A DNA stretch of 64,000 nt from Candidatus Velesiimonas alkalicola. GTDB lineage: Bacteria; Omnitrophota; Gorgyraeia; Velesiimonadales; Velesiimonadaceae. The stretch lies in assembly GCA_013626165.1 (NCBI GenBank), contig NDHX01000006.1:2060-66059 (forward strand), in the 5' to 3' direction. Below are positions 19,318-58,258 of this stretch, piece after piece. The notes beneath the pieces are model-generated. The model saw only the letters and a list, made by a program, of their open reading frames with translations, was not told the DNA's origin and ran no database searches. Within the stretch, counting starts at the first letter, position 1; each line of letters opens with the position of its first letter. Both the position numbers and the translations under genes were made by a program.

Positions 19318-20360
19318 TAGAAGTATCGCATAAATTGTTTTACAACTATAGGTTAAACTAAATAAAAATAGATAATTACCGATAATATATATAAGAGGAT
19401 ATATGGAAATAAGGTTACATAAGAATGCTACTACCTTAAAGATAAGGGATGAGATAAAGAAAAGTAAATTAAGTATAAATGCATTAGCAACTAAATACAA
19501 TATAGGTTGGCATACAGCAAAAAGATGGAGGGAAAGAGAGGATATTCAGGATAGGACATCTCGTCCACACAAATTAAATATAACCTTAACTAAAGAGGAA
19601 GAAGACCTAATATTATTTGAGCGCAAACAAAAGAAATTATCTTGTGAGGATATATATTGTATCCTAAAAGATAAAATCCATAATTTATATCCTATGAAGG
19701 TATATAGATGTGTAGCAAGGAATGGGTTTGGGATAATACCAGAAGAATTTATAAAAGAAGAGAGAAAAATTAAGAAGTTCAAGAAATACACAATAGGGTA
19801 TTTGCATGTAGATACACTCTATGCGCCTAAAATAAACACGACCCAAAATCAAAGATTTTGTGTGCCCGGGCATTATATCTTCACCTGTATAGACAGAGTA
19901 TCAAAGTTAGCATATGTGATAGTAGTAAAGAATAAAAATATGAAAAATAGCAAGATATTATTAGAGAAGGTATTAAAATTTTATCCATATAAGATAAATT
20001 ATATTTTAACAGATAACGGACAAGAGTTTTGTTATAATGCCTTACCAAAGAGTAAAAAGACTAAAAAGATGCATCCATTTGTTAAAGTATGTAAGGATAA
20101 TAAAATACAGCACAGAACAATAAAATTTAAGCACCCATGGACAAATGGACAGGTAGAAGCAATAAATAAGAAAATTAAGCAAAGGGTATTGACAAAATAT
20201 ATTTTTTCTGATACATTAGATTTAGAAAATAAATTGATAGAGTTTACAGAGTATTATAACAAGGAGGCAAAATTAAAAACTTTGGGATATAGGTCTCCCA
20301 AAGAGTACTTAATTGAGAAATATAATATTCAACTAACGTAGCGTTGTAAAACAATTAAAG
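19318..20360 (+). mobile_element. IS481/IS3-like insertion sequence with 14-bp terminal inverted repeats
   Basis: Left end aattgttttacaac (19322-19335) and right-end reverse complement aattgttttacaac (20343-20358). The AT-rich content (~28% GC) carries a single DDE transposase. Confidence 0.75.
19403..20341 (+). CDS. DDE transposase (integrase-core rve domain), IS481-like
   Basis: 312 aa with an N-terminal HTH and a catalytic region with TDNGQEF and HPWTNGQVE motifs. Confidence 0.8.
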   Translation: MEIRLHKNATTLKIRDEIKKSKLSINALATKYNIGWHTAKRWREREDIQDRTSRPHKLNITLTKEEEDLILFERKQKKLSCEDIYCILKDKIHNLYPMKVYRCVARNGFGIIPEEFIKEERKIKKFKKYTIGYLHVDTLYAPKINTTQNQRFCVPGHYIFTCIDRVSKLAYVIVVKNKNMKNSKILLEKVLKFYPYKINYILTDNGQEFCYNALPKSKKTKKMHPFVKVCKDNKIQHRTIKFKHPWTNGQVEAINKKIKQRVLTKYIFSDTLDLENKLIEFTEYYNKEAKLKTLGYRSPKEYLIEKYNIQLT

Positions 20361-20488
20361 AAAAGACTAAAATCTATTCTGTTAGCAGGCAGGTAAAAAG
20401 GCAAAGAAAATTGTTTGACAGTTTAAGAAAGAAGAGTTAAAATAAAGTGGTCTTTTGAAAAAGTAATATGGGGTTTACTGAATTTACA
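20355..20488 (+). repeat. 134-bp direct repeat, copy 1, abutting the IS right end
   Basis: Near-identical to 23676-23808, with 2-3 mismatches. Confidence 0.9.
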
Positions 20489-21800: not shown

Positions 21801-23675
21801 GAGGAGAGGAGATGGCAAAGATTAAGGGAGTAAAGGCGAGGATGTGTGCTGGCTGACCACATAGGTAACACTGGACTACGGATTTTAGCAAGTTCCTTTT
21901 CAATATATTCTACGAGAAAGTTCACTGAACCCCATCAACCTTATCTATTTGCCCCCTGAATCTCACAAGCCAATTTCTTATTCATCGCTTTTCTAAAACA
22001 GAAGTCTGTCATTAAGTGGAAAAAGACAAAAGTATACCCCTGACCTGTTGTGAATTTTCCAAAAAACTTCACATTACAGATGATAGATAATAGGACAGGA
22101 TAATTGTAATTATAAGTAGCACATTGCCCCCGAAGAAGCTACTCAGGTGCCTGTTGTTCAGGCTTACCCATTGTCCCAGACAATAGTTGTAATTTCAGGT
22201 GTGGTGGTCTCTTTTCCTTAAATAGCCTGCAGTAAGAATCTTCTCAAGTCTTTAGAAAGACCATTTCCTTAGCATATTCTTCAAAGTAGTATTCTAAACA
22301 GCTGCAAGAGTCTGATCCATTAAAAGATAGCTCTGGGTCATTGTAAAAAAACAGCTTTTATTTCTTCCCCTATCTTAGAGTAATTACTGTAGTAATTTTT
22401 CCTGCCAAGAACTGACATCTTAAAACACCTTTCTGCCAGATTATTATCTATAGGTACAAAAGATGCTTTACAAAGATAGTTAATCTTTTCCAATGTTCTT
22501 TAAGACTTTCTATTGCTTTAATCTGCTCTGGATGTTCATATTTTTGCCGGCTACGTTCTTTTGTCTTTTCCAATTTCTCTACCAACTGCTCCTGATAGAT
22601 AGAAAACTTATCAGGATTATTTAGCTGTGCCAGATGTTTTTCATTGATAAGATAGAGATTGGCAATATTATTTATTCATTCCTGTACCCAATAAGTAAGA
22701 ACATAGTGTCTTCTGGATATTTATCCTGTATCTTGATAAAATCTTTTCTTATAAAAATATCCAGGTCTGAAAGTTTCACCTGGAAGACCTGCCTTTGTAA
22801 AAAAAGACTGAAAAGATACTTATTCAGAATTACCTTAACCCAAAAGCTTACATCAAATTTACCCTTCTATGTATAATCTTTGGAGAAAAGAAGAAGTTAT
22901 AATAGGATTTAGACAAGAACAGGTTTTCTTATATTTCCTGCTCTGCTTTCTTCTTAAGAAAATAGGTCTTTCTTACCACTATCTTATAGGAATCTTCTGC
23001 AGTAGATAATTCTTCTAAAGACAATCTACATCTTTTACAATATCTTTCTTCTTTGGGTAATTTACAGAACTTTTCTACTTTTGGTAAGTTTTCAGGAGTC
23101 TTTTGTCTATAATACTTGGTAACTATCCTGAGCTTCTTGTTCTCTCCTTTCTGCTTTTACTTTTTAGACAGGTTTACTATCTTAAGTAAGAACAGGCATC
23201 TTTCTTGTAGCTTTGTTTTTCTATACTTTCTATTTTTATTTTTAGAATTCTATTTTCTTTTCTAAGTTTTTGATTTTTTCTCTTAAACTTTCCTTGTAAA
23301 CCAGTTGCATCTTTTACTTCTTTTTCTTTAGTATCTTCAAAGCATCCTTACATATTAGAGGCTAAATTCTTTATCTTTACCCAGGGGAAAATCAAAAAAA
23401 GAGGGAGGGGAGTTTAATTATTCTTTCTTTCTCTATTTGCAAGAAGAGCCTTTTTTAATGCATGCTGTTTTAATTGAGCATTTTGACCAGGCCAATTTAT
23501 CTTTTCACAAATTATTTAAGAGAGTTTGGTTTGAGAAAGATGAAAGTTCTTCTTTATAATCTTTTTTATTTCTTTTATTTTCTCTTTCAGTAAATTGCCG
23601 ACCATGATATATATTTTTCATCTTACAATAAATTATCATAAAAGAAAAAGCAATGTAAGTTTTTAGAATTATTTA

Positions 23676-23808
23676 TTAAAGAAAAGACTAAAATCTATTC
23701 TGTTAGCAGGCAGTTAAAAAGGCAAGGAAAATTGTTTGACAGTTTAAGAAAGAAGAGTTAAAATAAAATGGTCTTTTGAAAAAGTAATATGGGGTTTACT
23801 GAATTTAC
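23676..23808 (+). repeat. 134-bp direct repeat, copy 2
   Basis: Matches 20355-20488. It is preceded by ORF-poor AT-rich DNA (21.85-23.67 kb) containing stop-ridden reading-frame fragments. Confidence 0.9.
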
Positions 23809-28733: not shown

Positions 28734-30095
28734 CTAAAGACAATACCCAACCAGTGTGCAATTGTGAACATCTTTGACAAGAACATTGAAAATCTGCCCC
28801 GGTATAAACCTCGTTGGATATGGCAAGCTATCCAGTGGGGTAAACCTATCAACAGGGAAAACAATATTTCTGTTCTTTCTTGTATGTCCTTTTGCCCATA
28901 TGTTAGCGTCTATAGATTTTTTGACAATTTTTTCAACAAGGACTTCCTGTTCTGTGCCTATCAATCTTCTTAAATTATATTTTGCTATAGAAGAAACAAG
29001 GTCAAGTGCTACCCTGTGCCTTGACTTTTTATCGTTTATACTTACATCATCGGAAAGATTATAGGCAGATGTTCCTTTCCTCGTAGAATATTTATACACA
29101 AATGCACCGTCAAACCTTATTTGCTTTAAAACAGAAATCGTATCTTTGAAATCTGTATCTTTTTCCGATGGAAAGCCTACAATTATATCCGTTGTTATAG
29201 AGCACTGCGGAATTATAGACTTACATTTTTCTATCAGTTTAAGATAATATTCCCTTGTATATCCTCTGTTCATAAGCGTTAATATCCTGTCTGAACCGGA
29301 CTGTAAGGGAAGATGGATATGTTCGCACACATTGGGAAGTTCAGCAATTGTTTTAAGAAGTTTTTCATCCACATCCCTTGGATGGCTTGTCAAAAACCTT
29401 ATCCTTTTTATATCAGTTTCTTTATTTATGATTTTCAAAAGTTCAGTGAAATCACATTCTTGATATTTATATGCAGACACATTCTGTCCTAAGAGTGTAA
29501 CCTCCTTTACTCCTTTATTTGTCAAATCTTTTATTTCCCGGACAATCTCTTGCACCGGACGGTTTTTTAATTTTCCTCTTGCATAAGGAACAACACAATA
29601 TGAACAAAAATTTTCGCACCCCTTTGCAATATTTACAAATGCCGATACTTTGCTGTTTACAGATATACTTGTATTATCAGGATAATTCCTTCCAACCTCA
29701 AGTATATTTTTCTCTCCGTTTATTACTCTCTGAATAATATTGCCCATTAAACCTGTATCATCAGGTCCACATGCGAAAGAAAGTCCGGGTATTTTTTCAA
29801 AAACTTCCTCCCTGAGCAACTGCACAGAACATCCTACAAGCCCAACAACCGCCCCTGGTTTCTTTGATATTACATCTTTTGCATACTCTATCGCCCTGTT
29901 TTGAGCATGCTCTCTTACGGAACAGGTATTAAATAGGACAACATCAGCATCCTCAATACCATCAGACACAACAAATCCATCTGTCAGAAGACAGGACAAA
30001 ATCATCTGACTATCCCTTTTATTCATCTGACATCCGAAGGTACGGATAAAGATTTTTTTTGGCATATTTTTATAAGTTTTTGATTCTTTTGACAT
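28734..30095 (-). CDS. miaB: tRNA-i6A37 methylthiotransferase
   Basis: 453 aa with an N-terminal MTTase domain (TFGCQMN), a radical-SAM CxxxCxxC (CENFCSYC) and a TRAM domain. Confidence 0.9.
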   Translation of the reverse strand: MSKESKTYKNMPKKIFIRTFGCQMNKRDSQMILSCLLTDGFVVSDGIEDADVVLFNTCSVREHAQNRAIEYAKDVISKKPGAVVGLVGCSVQLLREEVFEKIPGLSFACGPDDTGLMGNIIQRVINGEKNILEVGRNYPDNTSISVNSKVSAFVNIAKGCENFCSYCVVPYARGKLKNRPVQEIVREIKDLTNKGVKEVTLLGQNVSAYKYQECDFTELLKIINKETDIKRIRFLTSHPRDVDEKLLKTIAELPNVCEHIHLPLQSGSDRILTLMNRGYTREYYLKLIEKCKSIIPQCSITTDIIVGFPSEKDTDFKDTISVLKQIRFDGAFVYKYSTRKGTSAYNLSDDVSINDKKSRHRVALDLVSSIAKYNLRRLIGTEQEVLVEKIVKKSIDANIWAKGHTRKNRNIVFPVDRFTPLDSLPYPTRFIPGQIFNVLVKDVHNCTLVGYCL

Positions 30096-30219
30096 TGTAG
30101 TTTCTTTTCTGTTTCTGAAAACAAAAAATTAAAGTGGGCAAAAAGAAAAAAAGAAATTTTTTTGTGGTAACGCCCCGCCGATGGCGGGGGCGATCTTGAT
30201 GTTTTTAAAAAGCAGCCCG
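30053..30219. repeat. 167-bp direct repeat A (terminator hairpin + miaB promoter + first 14 codons of miaB)
   Basis: Identical, with one substitution and a poly-T length difference, to 37856-38021. It contains the GC hairpin cgccccgccgatggcgggggcg followed by a T-run. Confidence 0.9.
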
Positions 30220-31712
30220 GCGAGCTGTTTCTTATCAGCAAAGTCTATTTTTTCTTTGCTGTCATCGTACCCATCAAGAAAGTCTTTTACTCTGTTAATA
30301 TAGCCCTCTGAGTGTTCTCGTTCAATTTCTCTAAGTTCATATCCTGCAAAGAGTTTTTTCAAGTTTTTTTCTTCGTTTCTGAGGCTTGAATTTTTCTCGC
30401 GATAGACATCTTCGCCAAGCAAATTTTCCAGATAAGCGTCTGTAAGTCTTGACTGTTTTTCTTGGTTAATTTTCAGCTTATCTTTGAACAAACCCACGTC
30501 ATTGCGAGGTGTTGACATCCCTGATGTCAACACCGAAGCAATCTCAAGACCAGTCCCTGTCGTCCATCGGCTCTGTTTTAGGCGTTCGTTTTGGACCAAC
30601 TGAGCAACTATTTTTGTGGCCTCCGGCTCTATATCCTCTGCCTTCACTGCCCTGTTGGTACAATTTATATGGCTTGAATAAGGACCTGAACACCTATACT
30701 AACGTTTCTTCCTATTCAAGCGATGGTTTGATATGGACGATACACCTGTATACCTATGATTGCACTTAGCACAAGCGATAAGACCTGTCAAAAGATACTC
30801 TTGACTTTTTGTTCTCGGTCGCCATGTTCGTGTCTTGTTCGCCAGCAGCTTCTGAACTTCTACAAAATCTTCTCCATCTATGATAGGCTTATGCCTTCCC
30901 TGTGCAACAAGAACTTTAGAAGGATCATTTCTGATATATTTGTAATGTTTTTTGGTTTTCTGATTCTTGTCATAGTGTTTTTTATTCCAAACAATCTTAC
31001 CGGTGTAAATCTGATTCTTAAGTATGTCACAAACAAACTTGTTGTAAAATTGTTTGCCTGTCCTTGTCTTGTATCCTTTCCTATCAAGGTATGCTGCTAT
31101 GTCGTGTGTGCTCTTGCCGGAAATATACATCGTATATATCAGCTTAACGATATTCGTTTCTCTTTCTTCAACCTCTAATAGCTTCTTGGTTTTGTTATAA
31201 GCATAGCCGAATGGCGCAAATCGTGCGCCTTGCCAGTTGCCTTGTTGAACGCCTTTCATCATGCCAGGGAATACCCTTTCAGCAATCCGGTTTCTTTCAA
31301 ACTCGGCAAACGAGCCAAGCTGCTGAAACATCAGTGTCCCTGCTGATGTCGTTGTGTCAAAAGGTTCTGTTGCAGATTTGAAGCCAACGCCATAGGAAGA
31401 TAGCTCATCCACCAGCATAAGCAAGTCTTTAAGGTTGCGACTAAAGCGATCGATCTTATGGACCAACACAAGCTCAAACCTCTTTGCCTTCGCATCAGCA
31501 AGCAACTGTTGTAAAGCCGGGCGACGCGTGGAATATGCACTTATGCCATCATCGCAATACACCTTGAAAACTTCATATCCTTCACGATTAGCAAAGGATT
31601 CAAGGTATTCTTTTTGTACTTCTAAAGAATAACCTTCTTTGGCTTGGTCTTCAGTAGATACTCGTGTATAAATTGCTATTCTTAGCTTTTCATTCATTTT
31701 TAATATCCACAA
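30129..31712 (-). pseudogene. Large serine recombinase (integrase), split by a frameshift into 337-aa and 172-aa ORFs
   Basis: The N-terminal resolvase catalytic domain (IYTRVSTEDQ, Ser nucleophile) is followed by a recombinase domain and a zinc ribbon (CAKCNHRY). The coiled-coil C-terminal part continues in another frame from 30647. The last ~30 codons run into repeat A. Confidence 0.75.
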
Positions 31713-31733: not shown

Positions 31734-32318
31734 TTATTTTAATCCCTTTATTAAACTTTCTATCGTATCAACAAAATCTATCGCATTTTTATAAACCTTT
31801 TCAGCATCTTTTTGCGCAATAACTGCATCTGCCTTATACTGTGCTGTATTTCTTTTGGATTTCGTGGCCCACATTCTATTAACATATTTCTCATCAAGCT
31901 TTTTTGCAGATTTTATCTTCTCGATGTCCTCTGATTCTATGGTCTTTTCTTTGAAAACAAAATGATATTCTAAACCCTCAATAAGGCTTTCATGGCTTTG
32001 GGCTTTTATCCCTATTGCGGCCAACGCAGCTGTTGCCGCATGAAACATTGCATAATATCCACAGCTTATAGTCCAATCATATCCAATATAATCGGCACTT
32101 ACTTTTAGTCTTTTCTTGCTCTCGTTATCTTCCGAAACCTCCATAAGTAAAGAACCTGTCTCGATATTATGCCTTGCTTTATCAACATGATATTTTACCA
32201 GCGCTGTAATTGTGGGGTCTACTTTTAAATCGCCATTATCAAAATAACCTTTTACTTTTATTTTTAGCATTTCTTTCTTCAAATCACTCATTTTATTACC
32301 TCCAATATTAGTTCCCAA
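31734..32318 (-). CDS. HEPN-domain protein (partner of the upstream nucleotidyltransferase)
   Basis: 194 aa with an all-helical HEPN-like pattern and a KRNTAQY segment. It overlaps the upstream MNT gene. Confidence 0.6.
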   Translation of the reverse strand: MGTNIGGNKMSDLKKEMLKIKVKGYFDNGDLKVDPTITALVKYHVDKARHNIETGSLLMEVSEDNESKKRLKVSADYIGYDWTISCGYYAMFHAATAALAAIGIKAQSHESLIEGLEYHFVFKEKTIESEDIEKIKSAKKLDEKYVNRMWATKSKRNTAQYKADAVIAQKDAEKVYKNAIDFVDTIESLIKGLK

Positions 32319-32911
32319 AATTTCTCTGCACCAAACAATATTACTTTATTTTTTAAGATCTCCTTGGCTACATTATGCTCCTTATCTTTTAACATTGTTA
32401 ATAAATTTGTTGGCTCAGAAACCAAAGGGTTTATTTCGACACCAAAACCTTTTGACAAGGCGACACATTCCATATCAATAATTTCATCATATTTCTTTTT
32501 TGAAGGGATAAGGATAAAAAGATCGATATCGCTTTTTTTAAAGTCGGTCCCTTTAGCCAAAGATCCAAATAGAACAACAGAAAGTAAGTTAAAATCTGTT
32601 TTCTTAGGCAATACCGAAAGAAGCTTTTCAACTACGAAGAAAATTTTATCCCTCTTCTTTAAAAAATCTTCGGCTATCTGATTCGATATTTTAACAAAAC
32701 TCGTTTTGACTTCTGGATTCTTGTAGTTAGGCCTGCAATACTTGCGGTTCGAACGCTGGTCGACAATTATAATATCCTTCTCTTTTAATTCTTCGACCTG
32801 CCTGTATACATAACTATAAGAAATATTTGTTTTCGTTGCTAACTCATTTATTGTAAACTGGGCATATACATCATCATAGAATAGCCTTATTATTTTATCT
32901 TTCATGTTCAA
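32288..32911 (-). CDS. Winged-HTH + minimal nucleotidyltransferase (MNT) protein
   Basis: 207 aa with an N-terminal wHTH and an NTase motif LFGSLAKG...DIDLFIL (GS...DxD). Confidence 0.7.
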   Translation of the reverse strand: MNMKDKIIRLFYDDVYAQFTINELATKTNISYSYVYRQVEELKEKDIIIVDQRSNRKYCRPNYKNPEVKTSFVKISNQIAEDFLKKRDKIFFVVEKLLSVLPKKTDFNLLSVVLFGSLAKGTDFKKSDIDLFILIPSKKKYDEIIDMECVALSKGFGVEINPLVSEPTNLLTMLKDKEHNVAKEILKNKVILFGAEKFWELILEVIK

Positions 32912-33042
32912 CCTCCATTATCACTTGTGGTGATAATATTATCACCAACGCTGATATATGTCAAGCTAAATTTTGAAGAGTGAAATTTTGAAGAGGGCTG
33001 GGAAATATGCGCACGCCCGTTTTGGGTGGGGAATTTCCTTTC

Positions 33043-33503
33043 CGGCTGCTTTTTAGCAGCGGCTAGGGAGCTGATGCAGTCCCGCCGCAGGCGGGGCAAA
33101 AACATCAAAATCGCCCACAAAAAGCTCTTTTCTTTTGAATTTTTTGCCCCCTTTAATTTTTTATTTTTTGAGGAAAAACAAAAATGCCAAACCAAGAACC
33201 TAAAAAGAGTTACAAATTTTTTGCCTCCAAAGTCTTTATCCGGACTTTCGGCTGGCCTTATGCTTCGGCTTTACAATATACTTTATTTGTTCTTTAAGAT
33301 TCAATGAACTTTAGGCACCGCCTGCTTAGGCAGGCTCCCGGTGTGGTGTTTGCACCGTTCAGCTTCGCTGTCGCTCAGCTTCACTCCACGCTCGCTTGGA
33401 CGCTCGCTAAAGTGGTAATGCAATAGTCCGATTCGGCTTTGTGTTGGACGCATTTTGGGTGGCGGCAAAATGCGCCCAACACCCTGCGTCCTCAACCTCG
33501 CAA
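33043..33503. repeat. Inverted copy (B) of the ~450-bp unit that is also present at 37584-38021
   Basis: It holds a diverged reverse complement of the 167-bp miaB-promoter repeat (33043-33200), then cttcggctttacaatatactttatttgttctttaagattcaatgaac, then a GC-rich ~190-bp segment (33315-33503) nearly identical to the reverse complement of 37584-37772. Confidence 0.85.
33315..33503 (+). ncRNA. Candidate structured ncRNA, copy 1 (unknown class), GC-rich with nested stems
   Basis: ~60% GC in a ~35% GC context. Multiple perfect stems (CACCG-CCUGC-UUAG-GCAGG-..-CGGUG; GCAUUUUG/CAAAAUGC inside GUUGG/CCAAC). It is duplicated exactly, and the only ORF is a duplicated composition artefact. Confidence 0.4.
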
Positions 33504-33594
33504 AAACTAAATCCGTTTTCCTTTTTTATTGCGGCCGCCGCCTGAACCGCCGTTTAGAAGAATTTTTAAAGTTTAACATATATGGGACCCTCCC

Positions 33595-34059
33595 TCAAAA
33601 TTTAAATTGAGCCGGAGGAGAATCTTTTTTGATAATCTCTTTAATTAAATCAACAAACTTTTCAGCCATATTCAAGGCATTGCTGGCTTCTGTCTTTGAA
33701 ATAGATATATCAACATCGTATGTAAATATGTTGCGCTTCTTCCTCATCTCGTCAAAACGAGCTACGATGATTTCAAATTCTTTTCCTAAGAAATGCGACA
33801 TAAATTCCACAACGGTTTTGTGCTGATAGCCGTCTGTAGGACGAAAACCTTTTAGGAGCATAAATGCTCTTCCCGCATGCAACATTGCTAAATATGCGAC
33901 TGTATAAGCAATACCTTCATCGATATCCAAATTAGCTTTTGATGTTTTTAAATCTTTAAATGAACGCGAAATAAGCTTTTCGACTGCACGGTAATTGCAT
34001 TTCTGTCTCTTTAATAGCCCTTTATTTAGGTATTCTTCAATAAATTTTTCAAAAGTCAT
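33595..34059 (-). CDS. HEPN-domain protein
   Basis: 154 aa with the R-x4-6-H-like motif region RKKRNIFTYD and a helical bundle. It overlaps the MNT gene. Confidence 0.65.
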   Translation of the reverse strand: MTFEKFIEEYLNKGLLKRQKCNYRAVEKLISRSFKDLKTSKANLDIDEGIAYTVAYLAMLHAGRAFMLLKGFRPTDGYQHKTVVEFMSHFLGKEFEIIVARFDEMRKKRNIFTYDVDISISKTEASNALNMAEKFVDLIKEIIKKDSPPAQFKF

Positions 34060-34621
34060 TTTTATCTCCTACTAAAAATATTTTCGAATCCTCTAAAAGG
34101 TCTGATATGAAGGGATCCTTTTCTCTCTTCTTCTTTATAAAATCTCTCTTCGAATATAAGCTATAATTTATTTCTCTTTTTAGAACTTTTTCTAATTTTC
34201 CTATTCCTGTTACTAATTTATCTTCGTCTACTTTGCCTATTATAAACAAATCAATGTCGCTTTTAGCGTTCTCTTCATTTTTGGCGAACGAACCATAAAT
34301 AAAAGCTGCTTCAACACCTTTTATCTTTTCAAGGATATCTTTTAACAACCCTTTTATGCCGATTGTTTTAAACACCATGCTTTTCATCTCTTCAAATAGC
34401 GGATAAGACTTGTTGAGAAAGAAATAAACGAGATTCCCTTTTCTGGATGAGGCAAAAATGCCAGCTTCTTCCAGATGAAGCAATTCCTTGCGAATCATAC
34501 TTACAGGGATATCGAGAATACGCTCAAGCTCTCTCAGGTAATATTCGCTCTGTGGATTTGTGTAAAATAGCCTAAACAGCGCCTTTCGTGTTTTAGATTT
34601 GAAAACGTTTGTTATATCCAT
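34049..34621 (-). CDS. HTH + minimal nucleotidyltransferase (MNT) protein
   Basis: 190 aa with an NTase motif YGSFAKNE...DIDLFII and an N-terminal HTH. Confidence 0.7.
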   Translation of the reverse strand: MDITNVFKSKTRKALFRLFYTNPQSEYYLRELERILDIPVSMIRKELLHLEEAGIFASSRKGNLVYFFLNKSYPLFEEMKSMVFKTIGIKGLLKDILEKIKGVEAAFIYGSFAKNEENAKSDIDLFIIGKVDEDKLVTGIGKLEKVLKREINYSLYSKRDFIKKKREKDPFISDLLEDSKIFLVGDKNDF

Positions 34622-34737
34622 CTCTTGTAATCCTTTCGTATTACAATTGTAATACTTTTATATAACAATGTCAAACTAAAATTTCACCGTTTTCCTCATT
34701 TATGCTGGTCAAGCAGCATGTATTATAGAAATGCGAT

Positions 34738-36030
34738 TTATATATTTAAAACCTCTCCATCGGTTAGAATCCTGACATTTTTGAAAAGATTAGGATAACT
34801 GTTCGGGTCAAAAGTATGAATCGGAATTAGTATTCTTGGCTTCATTGCTGATGTAAAGGCTTTTAGATCCTCTGGCTTGGCATGCCCGCTTGTATGAATA
34901 TATTCCAGAGTCAGTCTCTTGCTTTTACAAAACGCCCTAAATCCTATGGAAAGATATCCATCCCACATAGAATAAGCTATTGTGGCACCTGCTACATCAA
35001 TGATCTTTTTTAGTATCAAAGGGAAAACAGAATTATCGCGTGCGAGCATAAGAATCCTATTTTTATTTTTGCTAATTTCAGGCATTTCAATCTTTCTTTT
35101 GTTGTAAGCATAGAGCAGGTTTTTATGGCCTGCCTGAGCAAGCGCCTTCGCGTGTGCATCGAGAAATTTAACTCTCACATTTTTCCAATTAAACTGAGGA
35201 ATTTTCCCAGAGACTTGCTTGAGTTTATCCAGAATAAAGGCGGTATAAATATCAATAACAAAGGTTGAATCTGTTTTGAGGCACGCCCTATACGCCGACA
35301 CTATCCGGTCAATATTTTGCGATGAGGCAAATAGAAAGGTTATATTTCTTCTCTCTGATATAATTTCTTCTAGCCGCCTTTCAACGTCTTCCTCAGTTTT
35401 ATACTGGGCATCCTCTCTGCCAAGAGCCGAACCCTCCATAAGCAGACAGTCTATATTTTGAGGTGGTCTCTTGACTATTTGATTAAATAATATTGCTTTT
35501 CTCCCATGGGCCCTGAAATCTCCTGAATAAAATAGCCTCTTGCCTTCTGTCTCAATTAGGAATGCAAGCGCATCAAAGGCAGAATGGTCAACCAGAAAAG
35601 GCGTAACATTAAAATCGCCTATGTTCAACTGCTTTTTATTACTAATCACCTTTGTATTTAGCTTGCCAACTTTGGTGGGAACAAAAATATTTGAAACTTC
35701 AATAAGAAGCTCGGCGCCCTTACTTAAATAAATCGGTATCTCTGGATTTACGTACTGAAGGAAGCCGTAATGATCAAGGTGGGAATGAGAAATCAAGATT
35801 CCATCAATGCCTTTTTTCTCATCCTTAAAAAGCCCTTTTATATCGGGAAGGATCTTCTGCTCTTTAAGCTCTTGAAGGGACTTACCTTTAAGCTGTTTTA
35901 CTTCGAACGGCTGATGGTCACGAGAAACCAAAGGTATGCCAAAATCGACTAGGATTCTATTATTGACTGTCTTTAACTCAACACAACTTCCGCCAATCTC
36001 ATGAGTACCACGATGGATGATTATTTGCAT
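34738..36030 (-). CDS. Metallo-beta-lactamase fold nuclease of the beta-CASP type (RNase J/CPSF/SNM1-like)
   Basis: 430 aa with HxHxDH (SHSHLDHYG), downstream His/Asp motifs (VDHSAF, YSGDFR), and C-terminal TSGHA/IPIHT beta-CASP-like motifs. Confidence 0.7.
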   Translation of the reverse strand: MQIIIHRGTHEIGGSCVELKTVNNRILVDFGIPLVSRDHQPFEVKQLKGKSLQELKEQKILPDIKGLFKDEKKGIDGILISHSHLDHYGFLQYVNPEIPIYLSKGAELLIEVSNIFVPTKVGKLNTKVISNKKQLNIGDFNVTPFLVDHSAFDALAFLIETEGKRLFYSGDFRAHGRKAILFNQIVKRPPQNIDCLLMEGSALGREDAQYKTEEDVERRLEEIISERRNITFLFASSQNIDRIVSAYRACLKTDSTFVIDIYTAFILDKLKQVSGKIPQFNWKNVRVKFLDAHAKALAQAGHKNLLYAYNKRKIEMPEISKNKNRILMLARDNSVFPLILKKIIDVAGATIAYSMWDGYLSIGFRAFCKSKRLTLEYIHTSGHAKPEDLKAFTSAMKPRILIPIHTFDPNSYPNLFKNVRILTDGEVLNI

Positions 36031-36896
36031 TGCTTAATCAAATTCTCCAATTTTATCGACGACACACTACCTATTGGATAATAAGTAATGGCTCTCTCGA
36101 TTTTTTCTTTAAATAAATCCTTAAACCTTCCTTTCAACTGATCGCGGTCAAATCCAAATATTATCAAAGGAACTGTAGGGCATATCTTCTCCGGTTCAGG
36201 TAAGGATATCTGGAATAAATCATTAACTATCTTCGTATAATTGTTATATGCCGCGATGATTTGGCCCTCTTTATCTTTGATTTGGTCAGTATATCTTCTT
36301 ATCTGTTCCACTACTTTTATGTTCTCAACCTTTTCTGCCCATATCTCGCTGTTTGAAAAGTGTTTTACCTCACAGAAGATTAATCTATTCTTTTCTTTTT
36401 CAAATAAGAGTATATCGATTCTATCCTGCAACCTATCTTCTTCTATCGCCTCAAATGAAACTTCGATATCCAAAACCACAACGCTCGAATTTTTCGTTTT
36501 TGAACTCGCGAACGAATGATTTTCATATATTTTAGAAACTCCTTGAGCTTCAACTCCTGAATATAAAGAACAATTTTCTTTTATCCTTTCATAGCCGTCG
36601 GTAAAACTTTGTATTTGTTTCAGATTCCCAAGCATTAGCTCGGTAATATACGCTTCGGGATATTCTTTATATGCCGAAGCATACTTAACGTGCGTTTTAA
36701 ATCCTTCTTTGTCATATGAGAATAATCTGCCACCATAATGATAAAAATCTATTACTTCATTTCGTATTGCCGGAAAAACTTCGCCATTATCCTTAATATC
36801 CGGCAACAATTGTTTATATAAAGGCTCCTCTATCAACTTTTTCTTCAATTCTTCATTCATTGTCCGCTTAAACTTCCACTTCTCTTCCTTGCTCAT
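36021..36896 (-). CDS. Hypothetical protein with a possible PD-(D/E)xK nuclease core
   Basis: 291 aa. The central VVLDIEVSF...DRIDILLFEKEKNRLIFCEVKH resembles a D...D/E-x-K restriction-endonuclease-fold motif. It overlaps the MBL gene by 10 nt and the TPR gene by 4 nt, so the three are translationally coupled. Confidence 0.35.
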   Translation of the reverse strand: MSKEEKWKFKRTMNEELKKKLIEEPLYKQLLPDIKDNGEVFPAIRNEVIDFYHYGGRLFSYDKEGFKTHVKYASAYKEYPEAYITELMLGNLKQIQSFTDGYERIKENCSLYSGVEAQGVSKIYENHSFASSKTKNSSVVVLDIEVSFEAIEEDRLQDRIDILLFEKEKNRLIFCEVKHFSNSEIWAEKVENIKVVEQIRRYTDQIKDKEGQIIAAYNNYTKIVNDLFQISLPEPEKICPTVPLIIFGFDRDQLKGRFKDLFKEKIERAITYYPIGSVSSIKLENLIKQCK

Positions 36897-37410
36897 GTTA
36901 ACCTCTCTGGTTTAATTAGCCTCTTCATAATGTCATCCACGCATCGCAGGGCATCTTTATCATTTGGACAAAGCTCAAGTCCTTTATCAAAAGAAAGTAA
37001 TGCGTCCCAATATCTGCCTTTCTTTTTTAACGCCATGCCCCTGTTAAACCATATGCAGACATTGCGTTGCGCTATTTTAAGCGCTTCCTCAAAACACTCC
37101 ATTGATTCTTGTTCTCTACTCATCCTTAATAAACACGCCCCTTTATTTTCTAGGGCATCAATATTTTTTGGATTAATCTCCAGGGCTTTATTATAGCACT
37201 TTAACTCTTCAGTATTCTTATCAAGAAGAAAAAAGCATATCCCTTACGAAACCACGCCACGTCATCTGATGGATTTAGTTCTATGGCGCGATCATAACAA
37301 GCAACGGCATCCTCGTACATTTCTGCCTTACAGTAAATCTCTGCTGATTCATGCCAGTTAACAGCTTCTTTCATTATTTCTCCAAAAATAAAAAATCCTC
37401 CGCCGGTCAT
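36893..37410 (-). pseudogene. TPR-repeat protein, apparently split into two ORFs (37410-37201 and 37123-36893)
   Basis: Both fragments show TPR consensus (W-LG-Y-A-F-A-P). A ~75-bp gap with a frame change lies between them. Confidence 0.5.
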
Positions 37411-37583
37411 AACTTTACCAACGAAGGTTTTACTTTTTTAACGTCCGGGATTTCCCCCCTTCAAACACGGAACAAATATCTAATTTTAACTTTATTATAT
37501 CAAGTTTATTTACTTTGTCAACGATTTTCAGGACCATTTGACTTACCCAGCAGACACACGAGAATACAGTGTAAAATACTACA

Positions 37584-37772
37584 TTGCGAGGTTGAGGACG
37601 CAGGGTGTTGGGCGCATTTTGCCGCCACCCAAAATGCGTCCAACACAAAGCCGAATCGGACTATTGCATTACCACTTTAGCGAGCGTCCAAGCGAGCGTG
37701 GAGTGAAGCTGAGCGACAGCGAAGCTGAACGGTGCAAACACCACACCGGGAGCCTGCCTAAGCAGGCGGTGC
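37584..37772 (-). ncRNA. Candidate structured ncRNA, copy 2 (reverse complement of copy 1)
   Basis: Near-identical to the reverse complement of 33315-33503. It is positioned ~90 bp downstream (minus sense) of the duplicated miaB promoter copy. Confidence 0.4.
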
Positions 37773-37855
37773 CTAAAGTTCATTGAATCTTAAAGAACAA
37801 ATAAAGTATATTGTAAAGCCGAAGCATAAGGCCATCCGAAAGTTCGAATGTAGAC

Positions 37856-38021
37856 TTTTTTTGGCATATTTTTATAAGTTTTTGATTCTTTTGACATTGT
37901 AGTTTCTTTTCTGTTTCTGAAAACAAAAAATTAAAGGGGGCAAAAAGAAAAAAAGAAATTTTTTTGTGGTAACGCCCCGCCGATGGCGGGGGCGATCTTG
38001 ATGTTTTTAAAAAGCAGCCCG
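37856..38021. repeat. 167-bp direct repeat C (copy of the miaB terminator/promoter/first 14 codons)
   Basis: Matches 30053-30219, including atgtcaaaagaatcaaaaacttataaaaatatgccaaaaaaa (MSKESKTYKNMPKK). Confidence 0.9.
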
Positions 38022-38177
38022 CACATCTCTTTCTTGGTAGCAAAATCTATTTTTTCCTAAACGTGCGGGTTTAATTAATCCTTTTCTCTCCCAGATCCCA
38101 AGTGTAGCTGGGCAAACTTTTAAAGACTTGGAGACTATACCGATAGTATAAACTGGTTCTTTATATCCATATTCCAT
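38007..38177 (-). CDS. Small MerR-family HTH protein (56 aa), candidate excisionase/recombination directionality factor
   Basis: MEYGYKEPVYTIGIVSKSLKVCPATLGIWERKGLIKPARLGKNRFCYQERDVRAAF has a MerR/Xis-type HTH. It is below the 60-aa cutoff of the ORF track, and its last codons lie inside repeat C. Confidence 0.45.
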   Translation of the reverse strand: MEYGYKEPVYTIGIVSKSLKVCPATLGIWERKGLIKPARLGKNRFCYQERDVRAAF

Positions 38178-39604: not shown

Positions 39605-40303
39605 TTATTCCTTTACGTTTTCTTTAAAAGAAGCGATATTAGGTTTAATTTTAATTGGCTTTCCTATCTTCTCTACAACAGCTTCCTGAGTCTTCAAACC
39701 ATTGCCTGTTACGCATACAACAATAGATTCATCTTTAGGTATCTTGCCTTGCTCAATGAGCTTCTTTGTTGCACCTAAAGTCACACCCCCTGCTGTCTCA
39801 GCAAATATTCCCTCTGTTTCTGCTAGAAGTTTTATTGCCTCAACAATTTCATCATCAGTCACGTCTTCAGCATAACCGCCAGACTCCTTTACAGTTCCAA
39901 CTGCATATACACCATCTGCTGGATTCCCAATAGCTAAAGATTTAGCGATTGTGTTCGGCTTAACTGGTCTTATGATATCGGAATCTTCTTTAACGGCAGT
40001 AACTATAGGACAACAGCCTGTGGCTTGAGCCGCATGAATTTCTGTATCAACTTTGTCAATCAATCCTATGGTCTTAAATTCTTTTAACCCTTTCCAGATT
40101 TTGGTGATTAAAGAACCGCCGGCACAGGGAACTATAAAGTGTTGACTAACGATACATTAAGTATACAACTTAATGTATCGTTAGTCAACACATAATCAAC
40201 CTCTAAGGGGCCAAAGCAGTACTCGCATACATAGAGAGGCTTTTTTGGATATGTTCTTTGGCATTCTCTGCACTTTAATCCTTTAACATAACTTATATTT
40301 TCA
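39605..40303 (-). pseudogene. thrC: Threonine synthase (zinc-ribbon-containing type) remnant with an internal deletion and stop
   Basis: The N-terminal zinc ribbon LKCRECQRTYPKKPLYVCEYCFGPLEVDY (40197-40300) runs in-frame into the 53-bp palindrome and a TAG stop. The C-terminal part (QHFIVPCAGGSLITKIWKGL...VVCVTGNGLKTQ, 39605-40138) is in another frame. About 200 aa, including the PLP-lysine region, are missing. No ATG is in frame at the 5' end. Confidence 0.7.
40139..40191. repeat. 53-bp near-perfect palindrome (24-bp arms, 5-nt centre), copy 1
   Basis: gtgttgactaacgatacattaagt-ataca-acttaatgtatcgttagtcaacac. A second copy lies at 58141-58191. Confidence 0.9.
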
Positions 40304-54681: not shown

Positions 54682-55710
54682 TTAATGCGGATGGCCGTGG
54701 GCACCGAAGTCAATAGCCGCTTTCTGGAGTTCAGCTTTCAGGTGAAAACCACCTTTGGTCACTACCTGTTCACCAAGTTTAAGCCCGGCAATCACTTCTG
54801 AAAACTCCTCCCCTGTCGTTCCTAATTTGATTTCCCTCAGTTTGTATCTGTTGTCCCCTATTGGTATGAAAACAATTTCTTTGTTTTCCCATCTTTGTAT
54901 TGCTGAATTGGCAATAGATACCATTTTGTGAGGAGCCGTGTAAATTATATCTCCTGTAACAAACTTACCGAGTTTCAGCGTGTGGTCATAGTTATCAATA
55001 TCTACCCTTATTTTTATAGTTCTTGTTCTCCTGTCAACCCGTGGAGAGATGAATGTTATTTCACCGGGGTAAATCTTGCCGGGATATGCACGGGTTTTCA
55101 CTTTGACTTTTTGTCCCAATTTTACAATGGCTATATCTTTTTCATAGACATCAAAACTTGCTTTCATCGTAGATATATCGGCTATTGTGAAAAGAGAAGT
55201 AAGCATGTCCACTTCTTCTCCCTCAGAAATACGTTGTCCTATAATTAGTGTCCCACTGGGAGATTTTATCTCTTCAATTTTCCCGTCTTTACTGCCTTTG
55301 ACAAGTGCCAGTAAAGTTCCTTTTTCCACATTATCCCCCAAACCAACTTTAACTTCAACTATCTCACCCGGAATATTGGAAGTGACATGGAATAATTTCT
55401 CGCTATCCTGGGCTATCTCTCCGGTAATTCGTAGACTTTTCTTTATATGCCGCATAGCAACCTTATCTGTTTTTAATCCTATCATCTTCTTGCCCCGAGT
55501 AGATATTTGGACAACACCTTCCTCCTCGTGCTCGTGATGAACTCCTTCATCGTGCCTGTGTGGATGTCCCTCTTCAAAACACCAGCAATGGCAGCCCTCT
55601 CCATGTTTATGCGGATGCTCCTCTTCCCTGAATCCTCTCCACACTAATATTCCCACAATTAAACAAACTATACCTACAATTAACAGCCACGGCCAATAAG
55701 ACCTTTTCAT
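54682..55710 (-). CDS. Periplasmic adaptor (membrane fusion protein, CzcB/CusB-like) with a His/Cys-rich N-terminal metal-binding segment
   Basis: 342 aa with a TM anchor, then HPHKHGEGCHCWCFEEGHPHRHDEGVHHEHEEEG, then lipoyl/beta-barrel MFP domains. Confidence 0.85.
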   Translation of the reverse strand: MKRSYWPWLLIVGIVCLIVGILVWRGFREEEHPHKHGEGCHCWCFEEGHPHRHDEGVHHEHEEEGVVQISTRGKKMIGLKTDKVAMRHIKKSLRITGEIAQDSEKLFHVTSNIPGEIVEVKVGLGDNVEKGTLLALVKGSKDGKIEEIKSPSGTLIIGQRISEGEEVDMLTSLFTIADISTMKASFDVYEKDIAIVKLGQKVKVKTRAYPGKIYPGEITFISPRVDRRTRTIKIRVDIDNYDHTLKLGKFVTGDIIYTAPHKMVSIANSAIQRWENKEIVFIPIGDNRYKLREIKLGTTGEEFSEVIAGLKLGEQVVTKGGFHLKAELQKAAIDFGAHGHPH

Positions 55711-55766
55711 AGTTCACCTCCTGTTGTTTTTTCTAAAATCGCCAACTTTGTTTGATGGTCAAGTAT
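55604..55766. repeat. 163-bp direct repeat (adaptor-gene 5' end + upstream region); second copy at 56777-56939
   Basis: Near-identical copies. A third partial copy at 55921-56017 lies inside the coding region of the 321-aa paralogue. Confidence 0.9.
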
Positions 55767-55917
55767 AGACATAGTGTACCGTCCCATAAGTCCCTTTACA
55801 TTTGTCATTGCGAACAAAGTGAAGCAATCTTGTTTTCTGAACCAAAAAGTGAGATTGCTTCGTTGCATCGCCCCTCGCAATGACAGCCAAATGTCAAGAA
55901 ACGTTAGGGACACTACA

Positions 55918-56883
55918 CTAGTGCTCGTGATGAACTCCTTCATCGTGCCTGTGTGGATGTCCCTCTTCAAAACACCAGCAATGGCAGCCCTCTCCATGTC
56001 TATGCGGATGTTCCTTTTTTCTTTCAGCTTCAGCAATGGCATAGGCGCCTTTGGTCACAACGCGCTCACCATCGGATAGACCAGACAAAACCTCTACAAA
56101 GTCATTATCTCTGTTGCCCAGTTCCAGATAACGTTTCTCAAAGGTTTCGCCGGCTACCTGGACGAAAGCTACTGGCTTGCCGTTTTCATCAATCAGAGCC
56201 GACTCTGGTACAACCAAGGTCTCCTGTCCTATCGCTTTTCGTCGTCCCACAGGTTCGGCCCTGGTTAGCATTTTCCATTGCTGTTCCTTGAGAAAACTTA
56301 TGCCAGCGATCTCTTTAGGAAATGGAGCACGGTCAACTTCTTCATGGGAACCATATACCTCAAAAGGCGGCAGTTCGACGAGATGATCTTTGCCTTCAAG
56401 GGGGATAACCAGCGACAGACTCCACTCACCAGGTAGTGGAAAAGTTAGTTCTGGAATGTAAATACCGTCTCTAACCGGAGCCCGTGCGATATGCTTGTCC
56501 GGTGTCTCGGAGCCGCGACGCAAAATGAAAGTAACGGGTCCTTTTCCCCGAGGCTTAAGTGTTTGCAGGTCGGAGACATGGGTGATAAATTTGGTTGGTG
56601 TATTTGCCACGATAAATGCATGCTCAAGGAAAATTTCGAATCGCTCGGTCCAAACCGTGACCTGGGACGATTTTTCTGCGCCATGACCAATATGGACAGG
56701 ATGCTCTGCGTCATGTTTGTGTGCATCTTCCTCCTTCCCTTGTTGTTCGAAACAATAGCAATGGCATACCTCTCCGTGTTTATGCGGATGCTCCTCTTCC
56801 CTGAATCCTCTCCACACTAATATTCCCACAATTAAACAAACTATACCTACAATTAACAGCCACGGCCAATAAGACCTTTTCAT
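55918..56883 (-). CDS. Chimeric, shortened periplasmic adaptor paralogue with His/Cys-rich segments at both termini
   Basis: The N-terminal 38 aa and the C-terminal HPHRHGEGCHCWCFEEGHPHRHDEGVHHEH are identical to the neighbouring adaptor. The middle has a unique domain plus an MFP C-terminal beta-barrel-like segment (ETLVVPESALIDENGKPVAFVQV...GERVVTKG). Confidence 0.6.
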   Translation of the reverse strand: MKRSYWPWLLIVGIVCLIVGILVWRGFREEEHPHKHGEVCHCYCFEQQGKEEDAHKHDAEHPVHIGHGAEKSSQVTVWTERFEIFLEHAFIVANTPTKFITHVSDLQTLKPRGKGPVTFILRRGSETPDKHIARAPVRDGIYIPELTFPLPGEWSLSLVIPLEGKDHLVELPPFEVYGSHEEVDRAPFPKEIAGISFLKEQQWKMLTRAEPVGRRKAIGQETLVVPESALIDENGKPVAFVQVAGETFEKRYLELGNRDNDFVEVLSGLSDGERVVTKGAYAIAEAERKKEHPHRHGEGCHCWCFEEGHPHRHDEGVHHEH

Positions 56884-58115
56884 AGTTCACCTCCTGTTGT
56901 TTTTTCTAAAATCGCTAACTTTATTTGATGGTCAAGTATGGACCTAAAATAACTCAATCGAGTCCCTTTGAATGTTGTTAGAACTTCAAGATAGGTTAAA
57001 AAATCGGTTTTTCCTTCCGCATATTGCATCTCAATCAGCCTGATTAATTCGCTTCCTTTCTTTACAGATTTTTCCATCAGTGCCACTTGCCTATCAGATA
57101 AAACAACCTCCCCAAAGGCATTGTTAACTTCTAATTCTATCTGCCTTTTGAGGAAATTTATTTGATATTCTATCTTTTGTGACTCATTTCTTGCCTCTGC
57201 AATCTCACCTTGTTTTCTATACCAGAAAGGTAAAGGTATTCCCAGGGTGACTCCCAATCTCTGTTCTCTGTCTTCCCGTTCTGCCCAAAAACCGACGGAG
57301 GGGTTAGCAAACCTCTCTTTTCTCATCAATTTTACCTCCATATTTTTTGAATCAAGCATCAGTTTTTTAGCCTTAAGGTCTGGCCTGTTTATCAAAGCAT
57401 TTTTTATAAGCGTGTCTAAATCAAACCGCCTCTCTTTATAAACAAATTCATCGGTGCAAACGAATTTATGAGAGACCGATCTCCCGAGTAAAATATTTAA
57501 TTTTGCCTTATTAAGAGAGAGATCTTTTTCGGCTACTAATAACTCATTTTGAGCGTAAAACATCTCAATCTCCGCCCTGAGTAATTCACTCCTTAAAACT
57601 TCTCCAAGATTAAATTTCTCCCGGACTTTATCCAAAAATTTCCTGGTTAGATTTAAAGACTCCTCAGCAAGTTCCTCTATTTTTCTTGCCAACAATATCT
57701 GAGCATATGATTCCTTAACCTTAAAAGAGACCCCCAAGTGGATTAACTCCAACTCACTTTCGTAGATTTTAATCTCATTTCTTGCCATATTTCCCCGGAG
57801 TGTTCTTTTCCCAAAGAGTTCCAATTCTTGACTGACTTCAACTTCTACACCTCCGGAAGGATTTTTCATTACCGTCTCAAGTTCAGGATTAGGATAAGCC
57901 AAAGCCTGAACAACTCTTGCCCTTGCTGATTCAATATTTTTTTCTGCTGTCACTATTTCAGGATTATTTATAAAAGCGATTTTCAATGCCTCTTCCAAAG
58001 AAAGTTTTTCCAACTCTTCCCCTCCGGCTATCTTAATATGGAAGGACATCAATGTTAACACGATAAGAACGACCTTCATCACAACCTCCTCTGGTATAAT
58101 CTTCACCCTAGACAT
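56880..58115 (-). CDS. Outer-membrane efflux protein (TolC/CzcC/CusC family)
   Basis: 411 aa with a signal peptide and two OEP repeats. It is translationally coupled to the downstream adaptor gene. Confidence 0.8.
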   Translation of the reverse strand: MSRVKIIPEEVVMKVVLIVLTLMSFHIKIAGGEELEKLSLEEALKIAFINNPEIVTAEKNIESARARVVQALAYPNPELETVMKNPSGGVEVEVSQELELFGKRTLRGNMARNEIKIYESELELIHLGVSFKVKESYAQILLARKIEELAEESLNLTRKFLDKVREKFNLGEVLRSELLRAEIEMFYAQNELLVAEKDLSLNKAKLNILLGRSVSHKFVCTDEFVYKERRFDLDTLIKNALINRPDLKAKKLMLDSKNMEVKLMRKERFANPSVGFWAEREDREQRLGVTLGIPLPFWYRKQGEIAEARNESQKIEYQINFLKRQIELEVNNAFGEVVLSDRQVALMEKSVKKGSELIRLIEMQYAEGKTDFLTYLEVLTTFKGTRLSYFRSILDHQIKLAILEKTTGGEL

Positions 58116-58140
58116 CCTAGAGCGAATTGGTTAGTAAATT

Positions 58141-58191
58141 GTTAGATAACGATACATTAAGTATACAACTTAATGTATCGTTAGTCAACAC
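58141..58191. repeat. Second copy of the 53-bp palindrome (left arm slightly degenerate)
   Basis: ...aacgatacattaagtatacaacttaatgtatcgttagtcaacac, with a ~46-nt identity to 40146-40191. It lies between the OMP gene start and pstS. Confidence 0.9.
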
Positions 58192-58258
58192 ATATTCTTT
58201 CATATTATTTTTGACAGTATCTAGCGGGGAGAGGCAAATGCCTCTCCCTTTGTTTGCT

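Follow-up and report, generated by a model that had tools for sequence, protein, structure and literature searches.

Introduction

Large serine recombinases (LSRs) are established tools for genome engineering, and we know of none that needs more than short double-stranded sites, with neither accessory sites nor RNA. The described systems that come closest to the locus reported here are varied. The bridge RNAs (seekRNAs) of the IS110/IS1111 elements are structured non-coding RNAs of about 150–250 nt encoded in non-coding DNA beside the recombination site of a DEDD recombinase. Transposon-end antisense RNAs, such as RNA-OUT of IS10 and art200 with the 5' structures of IS200, are small structured boundary RNAs that lie inside the element, overlap the promoter/start region in its terminal inverted repeat, and target the transposase start. 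Integron attC sites, which stand at the ends of variable cassettes near a recombinase platform, are single imperfect palindromes of 57–141 nt that a tyrosine integrase recombines in folded, single-stranded form. In the G segment of phage Mu and the C segment of P1, a serine recombinase gene lies beside a segment bounded by inverted repeats, which carry gene ends joined to constant parts outside. The dusA-specific islands enter a tRNA-modification gene at its 5' end, and sequence carried by the island takes the place of that 5' end and probably of its promoter (Farrugia et al. 2015, PMC4482086).

We analyzed a 64,000-nt stretch of the Candidatus Velesiimonas alkalicola (Omnitrophota) contig NDHX01000006.1, hereafter the window, in which a GC-rich element occurs twice. 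A sequence-only reading had proposed that the element is a candidate structured non-coding RNA, lying downstream of a repeated promoter and possibly associated with a TPR/nuclease operon. Comparison with homologues suggests that the kind of molecule was judged rightly and that its strand and its associated genes were not. The element is probably the core of a conserved structured non-coding RNA, encoded on the + strand at copy C (Table 1), and we regard it as a credible new RNA family inside an undescribed mobile-element architecture, an island built around an LSR gene and placed at the start of the tRNA-modification gene miaB.

The Duplicated Element

The intervals 33315–33503 and 37584–37772 are perfect reverse complements of each other (189 of 189 positions), as the sequence-only reading had it, and the identical run is in fact longer, covering 251 nt (33253–33503 and 37584–37834). 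The same reading described the element as GC-rich in a GC-poorer background, and the measured values are 0.582 for the element and 0.388 for the whole window. The hairpins that it named are present and recur in the minimum-free-energy fold of the opposite strand. It had also dismissed the open reading frame as an artefact, rightly: the 64/82-aa ORF has a single 71-aa match among 5.8 billion proteins, and that match is itself an ORF overlying a homologous element. A protein-coding element is ruled out, since the open frame falls in a different frame or on a different strand among the homologues and the one match is spurious.

In the window the RNA core comes to about 190 nt; relatives have additional modules at the 5' side. 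Searched at the gathering thresholds of Rfam 15, the whole window yields only three tRNAs, and the element has no family; at E ≤ 10 nothing credible appears in 32900–33700, and at E ≤ 1 the homologues from loci L027 and L008 have no match, so that no Rfam family fits it at curated or at permissive thresholds. BLASTN of the element against phage and plasmid collections also gave no match. A dispersed repeat of the MITE or REP kind is ruled out by the presence of just two copies in 64 kb, both at island junctions. Most other loci are single-copy, with one element per 10–20-kb locus and none further within 10 kb.

The window holds other repeats as well. A near-perfect palindrome of 63 nt that looks like an operator occurs twice between genes (40135–40197 and 58135–58197, 92% identical), adjoining sulfur-carrier and efflux genes. 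Two adjacent paralogous genes for His-rich HlyD-type membrane-fusion proteins (54682–56883, − strand) account for direct repeats of 100–200 nt at 55525–56946, and a 134-nt direct repeat, 98% identical, is found at 20354–20487 and 23675–23808, 3.3 kb apart.

Table 1. Features of the window and terminal repeats of two related loci (L025 and L027, in their own coordinates); RNA features and helices are predictions for the proposed strand
Feature	Position	Strand	Remarks
RNA core, copy C	37584..37774	+ (proposed sense)	Candidate RNA by fold z-score, covariation and covariance model
P1 helix, copy C	37585-37591/37661-37668	+	
H1 helix, copy C	37605-37621/37630-37646	+	
H2 helix, copy C	37675-37679/37699-37703	+	Encloses loop GCGAGCG-UCCA-AGCGAGCG
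H3 helix, copy C	37704-37710/37723-37729	+	With tandem G-A
H4 helix, copy C	37731-37742	+	
H5 helix, copy C	37744-37771	+	
RNA core, copy B	33313..33503	−	Identical to copy C; interval of the sequence-only reading, other strand
Spacer, copy C	37775..37832	+	AT-rich; between RNA core and recombination site
Spacer, copy B	33255..33312	−	Same as copy C spacer
Arm B	33098..33254 (approximate)	+	Left inverted repeat of LSR island, directed outward from island
Arm A	30031..30254	−	Right repeat: end of LSR gene, miaB leader, miaB codons 1-21
Arm C	37833..38056	−	Direct repeat of arm A (93% identity)
LSR gene	30129..31712	−	Inactivated
miaB	28734..30095	−	Intact; TIGR01574 394.5 bits, cut-off 355.3
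Cassette between RNA copies	33595..37521	−	Promoter, TPR, 291-aa, RNase J-like, MNT/HEPN
L025 terminal repeats	7554-7731/11477-11654		Perfect inverted
L027 terminal repeats	6932-7108/11466-11642		Perfect inverted

Homologues and Distribution

Homologues were found through the protein match to the spurious ORF, two exact-pattern scans and nhmmer, and come from loci L007, L008/L019, L021 (two copies), L025–27, L029, L030 and L032–38, that is, from Omnitrophota-type lineages, Planctomycetales and unbinned contigs. Exact-pattern scans returned one true homologue and ten chance 20-mers from metagenomes, two true loci and one chance match from genomes, and only a chance match from viral sequences; a scan of viral contigs for the LSR gave a single distant locus. 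When the genomic contexts of LSR relatives were read, the element was present in every locus that reached far enough (L025/26, L027, L029, L030, L032–34 and L035–38). Loci L030 and L031 are the same sequence, which voids an apparent cargo swap between them.

The TPR/nuclease operon, for which the sequence-only reading had suggested a check of co-occurrence, is absent from every homologous locus. Neighbors vary, among them restriction-modification, SIR2-HerA, radC and other cassettes, and the constant neighbor is the left repeat of an LSR island. In a JGI contig (L007) the element lies between radC and an arm of the B type; in a Candidatus Omnitrophica metagenome-assembled genome (L008, the same as L019) it stands beside restriction-modification genes; and in a Planctomycetales bin (L021) two direct copies surround a restriction-modification cassette.

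Some relatives have a further GC-rich module of about 210 nt 5' of the RNA (L004, 1–230; L008, 3960–4200; L021, 740–960), with a covarying hairpin, CCCCGCCCGCAACU..AGUUGCGGGCGGGG in one form and CCCCGCCAGCAGGU..ACCUGCUGGCGGGG in another. A population variant of window copy C has this module (Logan DRR093103), whereas the window itself has it deleted. Past the RNA junction of L008, positions 3600–3640 hold a stub ORF (..FIRTFGCKDACLDCHNH.) with a CX3CX2C radical-SAM motif; here the recombinase may have recombined with the start of a different radical-SAM gene.

Structure, Covariation and Strand

Helices H2, H3 and H5 keep their pairing through changes on both sides. RNAalifold applied to the window clade gives −64.3 kcal/mol on the proposed strand, with a favorable covariation term and three compensatory pairs, against −56.9 with an unfavorable covariation term on the other strand. 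A MAFFT alignment of nine 3' domains misplaced helix strands, so the strands of H2, H3 and H5 were extracted by hand; with these hand-picked strands from 10 sequences of two clades, 96.5% of positions are paired as against 83.4% in shuffles (0 of 500 as high), six pairs are changed on both sides, and covariation is 0.369 as against 0.131. An alignment to the covariance model, which was thus fitted to its own model, has 79.1% paired as against 72.0% in shuffles (0 of 500), seven double-change pairs (2 of 500), and at most 46% paired when partners are slid; the model matches copy C over 37668–37774 at 128.6 bits. Both pairing and covariation lie above every one of the 500 shuffles and above every control with slid partners. 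Most of the covariation separates the two clades, and the independent events are therefore few. The helices would thus appear to be maintained by compensatory change, as in a structured non-coding RNA, in a small number of independent lineages. For held-out homologues, a structure-aware model of the window clade scores 48, 42, 38, 37 and 20 bits and a sequence-only model 55, 38, 38, 35 and 39 bits, so that the structure-aware model does no better overall.

Hairpin insertions of differing length occupy the same loops, and the H2 loop, AGCGAGCG-N4-AGCGAGCG, is invariant across the homologues; a search for a conserved cis site complementary to this loop found none.

The sequence-only reading had placed the RNA on the strand that is the reverse complement of the one favored by G-U pairs, tandem G-A/A-G pairs and fold energies. 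In the window, the fold z-score is −3.8 to −4.0 on the proposed strand and −0.9 to −1.6 on the other, and in all 10 homologues the proposed strand has the lower minimum free energy and the lower z-score. H2 contains eleven G-U pairs that become A-C mismatches on the opposite strand. The tandem G-A/A-G of H3 is conserved and is replaced by Watson-Crick pairs in L021, and the clade of L025, L027 and L035 has a 5' hairpin capped by GAAA. The two strands differ in the way that a structured RNA would make them differ.

LSR Islands at miaB

The LSR has Resolvase, Recombinase and Zn_ribbon_recom domains and belongs to a family with 1327 matches at E ≤ 1e-30, the best 120 of these 1327 being 63–91% identical (about 553 aa). 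Named relatives are mostly from Omnitrophota, with Aureabacteria and Elusimicrobia also represented. In all nine distinct readable islands miaB lies directly 3' of the LSR gene (as a stub in L039), and the orientation is the same in all nine. The LSR frame remains open through the miaB leader and first codons, overlapping miaB in another frame, and the conserved LSR tail that results reads ..LLFKNIKIAPAIGGA.PQKRISFSLFAPFNFLFSE...

The islands end in perfect (100%) inverted repeats of 62, 176–178 or 208 nt, as in L025 and L027 (Table 1) and likewise in L029, L030, L032, L035 and L039. Encoded in them are the tail of the LSR and, for miaB, the leader with the first 19–21 or so codons. Each island sits at about codon 20 of miaB, and in every locus the right repeat supplies the miaB leader and first codons; on our reading of the alignment, the reconstructed empty site would have no start codon. 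We looked for hybrid attL/attR boundaries in direct orientation and found perfect inverted repeats, arms C and A of the window being the only direct pair. Sites in inverted orientation permit inversion and do not permit excision. Descriptions of an LSR at miaB, or of such islands in Omnitrophota, were sought in the searchable literature and none was found.

Inside the repeats, the LSR gene is accompanied by a gene for a 60-aa Xis/MerR-like helix-turn-helix (HTH) protein and by variable cargo of one to a few genes. At the LSR loci examined, the element is found immediately outside the left repeat, from which a spacer of 60–80 nt with a conserved end separates it, and it shares the strand of the LSR gene and miaB. 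The end of the copy C spacer (..GUAAAGCCGAAGCAUAAGGC) is kept in the homologue alignments, and the flank (A/G)CC(C/T)T..G..TTTA(C/T)A is conserved in all homologues; the spacer end is probably the outer half-site for the recombinase. On the 5' side of the element are unrelated defence cassettes, comprising type I/III restriction-modification, SIR2-HerA or DUF2130/AAA_15 genes, and in the window the TPR/291-aa/RNase J-like/MNT-HEPN cassette. The element is not a host leader of miaB: the junction lacks native 5' codons, two copies of the element can share a locus, copies are also found apart from miaB, and the reconstructed empty site, as we read it, has no start codon.

A conserved GC-rich non-coding stretch separates the left repeat from the Xis-like gene in L027 (7109–7290), L030 (298–470) and L032 (6798–6990). 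In one portion of this stretch the 3' coding end of the LSR recurs as an inverted, diverged copy with inserted hairpins; after the stretch comes the promoter of the Xis-like gene, TTGACA-17-TAAAGT. A motif, CCACCC[AG]A, occurs on the RNA strand at 33022 (reverse complement) and 37625 in the window, at L023 192, L027 7194 and L030 335, and at 6220, 6296 and 6869 in L032, where two sites are upstream of the RNA. Its places are 38–86 nt inside the left repeat in several islands and the H1 loop of the window-type RNA, and these places, with the two sites upstream of the L032 RNA, take in 12 of 19 occurrences in 239 kb.

Organization of the Window

What the sequence-only reading had called a promoter copy is a real repeat, present three times in the window (arms A, B and C); its identity is the LSR 3' tail with the miaB leader and about 19 codons. 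All three copies break at ..TTCGG(A/C)TG. The only sigma-70-like promoter in the arm is one weak match overlapping the ATG. Both RNA copies adjoin the repeat on their own outer sides, and the third repeat copy runs into intact miaB. Since the RNA would lie on the strand opposite to that first proposed, it would converge on the repeated miaB 5' region and would not be driven from it.

Copy B with arm B corresponds to the canonical left end of an island and arm A to the right end. Arm B repeats the LSR tail and the miaB leader with its first codons in diverged form and is of the same type as the arms in L007, L021 and L039; 33030–33097 corresponds to a conserved stretch found after the left repeat of other islands. 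Arm A is continuous with the remainder of miaB, the first 21 or so codons of which fall within it. Arm C is joined to RNA copy C and not to miaB; at its inner end the LSR 3' sequence extends for another 47 nt and is fused to a fragment of an HspR-like gene. Together, arm C and copy C look like the remaining stump of a second, oppositely oriented island. The HspR/MerR-type HTH fragment (38007–38177, − strand, 56 aa) has a 3' end that runs into arm C, and it appears to have been truncated by the stump.

The LSR gene of the window is a pseudogene, with an in-frame TAG (30699–30701) at the first Tyr of the zinc-ribbon YYRC motif and also a frameshift within the conserved C-terminal tail. The region occurs in three NCBI metagenome assemblies, and the TAG split (gene calls of 332 and 172 aa) recurs in both other assemblies that cover the gene (L001 and L002).

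The cassette between the RNA copies has a sigma-70 promoter that matches the consensus at 12 of 12 positions (37521–37494). In its operon (34738–37521, − strand) the TPR gene is split into two ORFs; the 291-aa protein matches none of the families of Pfam, NCBIfam or PADLOC; and there is also a beta-CASP RNase J-like metallo-beta-lactamase (MBL) protein of 430 aa. Two HEPN/nucleotidyltransferase (MNT) pairs (31734–32911 and 33595–34621, − strand) flank RNA copy B, and both match the PADLOC candidate defence system PDC-M05.

Transcription Signals

Taken as a whole, the transcription signals are ambiguous. In L035 the proposed strand has a good sigma-70-like promoter (TTCAAA-16-TATAAT) some 20 nt ahead of the RNA, and window copy C has only a weak match upstream. 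Promoter matches upstream of the RNA are not conserved among loci, and scans gave no consistent signal on either strand. The gene upstream is divergent in four contexts (L008, L021 copy 2, L029 and window copy C), in which the RNA would accordingly need a promoter of its own.

An intrinsic terminator is rejected as an identity for the element itself, because on neither strand is a hairpin directly followed by a U tract; there is no terminator-like site within the element on either strand, and its last hairpin has no U tract after it. In L027 the opposite strand carries a canonical intrinsic terminator immediately beyond the element, in keeping with the orientation of the sequence-only reading. 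In the RNA direction, every repeat has at its inner edge a hairpin (CCCCGCC-GAT-GGCGGGG) with a U-rich tail; since the stretch also encodes conserved residues of the LSR tail, the hairpin is not necessarily a terminator.

Proposed Mechanism and Alternatives

We favor, tentatively and with distinctly less than even confidence, the combination of a structured RNA with a boundary or antisense mechanism; the mechanism taken by itself is possible and on the unlikely side. The RNA would be transcribed toward the island, cross the spacer with the recombinase's outer half-site, and enter the left repeat, where it would be antisense to the duplicated miaB leader and start codon, which point outward, and to the duplicated LSR tail, before meeting the GC hairpin and U-rich tract at the repeat's inner end. 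It could thereby neutralize both the RNA made from the duplicated 5' region of miaB and the translation of that RNA. The identity of the two repeats would also allow pairing in trans with the LSR-miaB messenger. The structured 5' domain might confer stability or provide a platform for protein binding, for example through its invariant loop. It is the antisense position in the left repeat, together with the identity of the repeats, that leads us to favor a boundary or antisense RNA. A complex multi-helix domain is unnecessary for an antisense role, and antisense action does not explain the perfection of the repeats.

The main rival is that the element, as RNA or as DNA, might be an accessory of recombination that works with the LSR or the Xis-like HTH protein. 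In that role it could impose a direction, prevent or license recombination at the left site, or label the place where new cassettes are taken up. This we consider unlikely, although its distance and orientation to the left recombination site are fixed in every island, its invariant direct repeat resembles a protein-binding site, and CCACCC[AG]A lies on the same strand in the RNA and within the left repeat. In L008 and L021 copy 2, unrelated DNA begins after the RNA, the spacer and just 11 or so nt of the arm, from which it follows that RNA and half-site move as one arm of a site. Against an accessory role, LSRs as we know them need neither accessory sites nor RNA, complementarity between RNA and site is not above chance, and strand-specific G-U pairs speak against a purely double-stranded DNA function. 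A bolder version, to which we give a low probability, makes the RNA a working partner of the LSR system, bound for instance by the unusual C-terminal tail of the LSR or by the Xis-like protein; it might control recombination at the left site or its direction, or direct the capture of defence cassettes.

The element might instead belong to the cassettes upstream and not to the LSR island, as a 3' end module that stabilizes or insulates or as a recombination module like integron attC. Variable defence genes do lie upstream on the same strand at window copy B and in L025, L027, L032 and L035, and both the window and L021 have cassettes enclosed by a pair of copies; we nevertheless hold this to be decidedly unlikely, as the upstream neighbor is on the other strand in the four divergent contexts listed above, most loci have a single copy within 10 kb, the last hairpin lacks a U tract, and the cassettes are wholly different while the relation of RNA to repeat is fixed. 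Very unlikely, in our estimate, is an RNA on the opposite strand driven outward from the duplicated miaB 5' region, as first proposed. The miaB leader and start codon of the repeat point toward the element, a TGA formed exactly at the junction cleanly ends the stub ORF in most islands, and the L027 terminator lies just beyond; on that strand, however, many conserved pairs turn into A-C or pyrimidine-pyrimidine mismatches, folding is weaker in all 10 homologues, and the arm offers no sigma-70-like promoter besides the weak match mentioned above. We give equally little credence to a DNA-level feature or decaying remnant, with hairpins that are by-products of a GC-rich att arm or of fossil foreign DNA. 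Sequence conservation alone does explain much of the model score, and the islands are rich in repeated and rearranged DNA, but the helices survive double changes, hairpin insertions of differing length fall in the same loops, and the element is kept across LSR clades with just 67–91% protein identity. The boundary or antisense RNA remains the account that we prefer.

Significance

If real, the element represents a new structured RNA family tied to a mobile element in the little-studied phyla Omnitrophota and relatives, and the first structured RNA adjoining a large serine recombinase site. Were it a working partner of the recombinase, it would be the first RNA-dependent LSR system and could account for perfect inverted repeats that hold the host's miaB hostage. 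The island context may matter more than the RNA: there are more than 100 close LSR relatives, every readable island precedes miaB, and very different defence cassettes accumulate beside the left island end. This raises the question of whether the islands are indispensable by owning the start of a housekeeping gene. An LSR family with an unusual site architecture and a possible RNA partner is also of practical interest.

Comparison with Known Systems

Like bridge RNAs, the element would be a structured non-coding RNA of similar size in non-coding DNA beside a recombination site; unlike them, its partner would be an LSR and not a DEDD/IS110 recombinase, and it lies outside the terminal repeat. 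A guide or bridge function is rejected, because the longest complementarity to the site, 6–8 nt in six islands, equals the shuffled expectation. A TnpB/IscB guide RNA (omega RNA/reRNA) is likewise rejected, with no tnpB or iscB in the window region or in any homologous locus.

The antisense RNAs of IS10 and IS200 have no sequence or Rfam relationship to the element. They resemble it as small structured boundary RNAs, and in our working model also by overlapping a promoter/start region in a terminal inverted repeat. They differ in acting from inside the element on the transposase start, whereas the RNA described here would start outside the island and target a duplicated 5' region of a host gene and the 3' tail of a recombinase.

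With integron attC the element shares its place at the end of variable cassettes (here for defence) near a recombinase platform, and a structure that in places is more conserved than sequence. It is a multi-helix domain with invariant loops that adjoins a serine recombinase, in contrast to the single palindromes and tyrosine integrase of attC.

The Mu G and P1 C segments share with the miaB islands the placing of a serine recombinase gene beside a segment bounded by inverted repeats that carry gene ends. Those systems use small invertases and an enhancer, and inversion swaps different gene ends; inversion of a miaB island would change nothing at the junctions, because both arms are identical. 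The miaB islands also resemble the dusA islands in supplying a new 5' end to a tRNA-modification gene. The dusA islands, however, have a tyrosine integrase and direct att repeats, and can be excised, whereas the miaB islands have an LSR, perfect inverted ends and a putative structured RNA flanking the far end.
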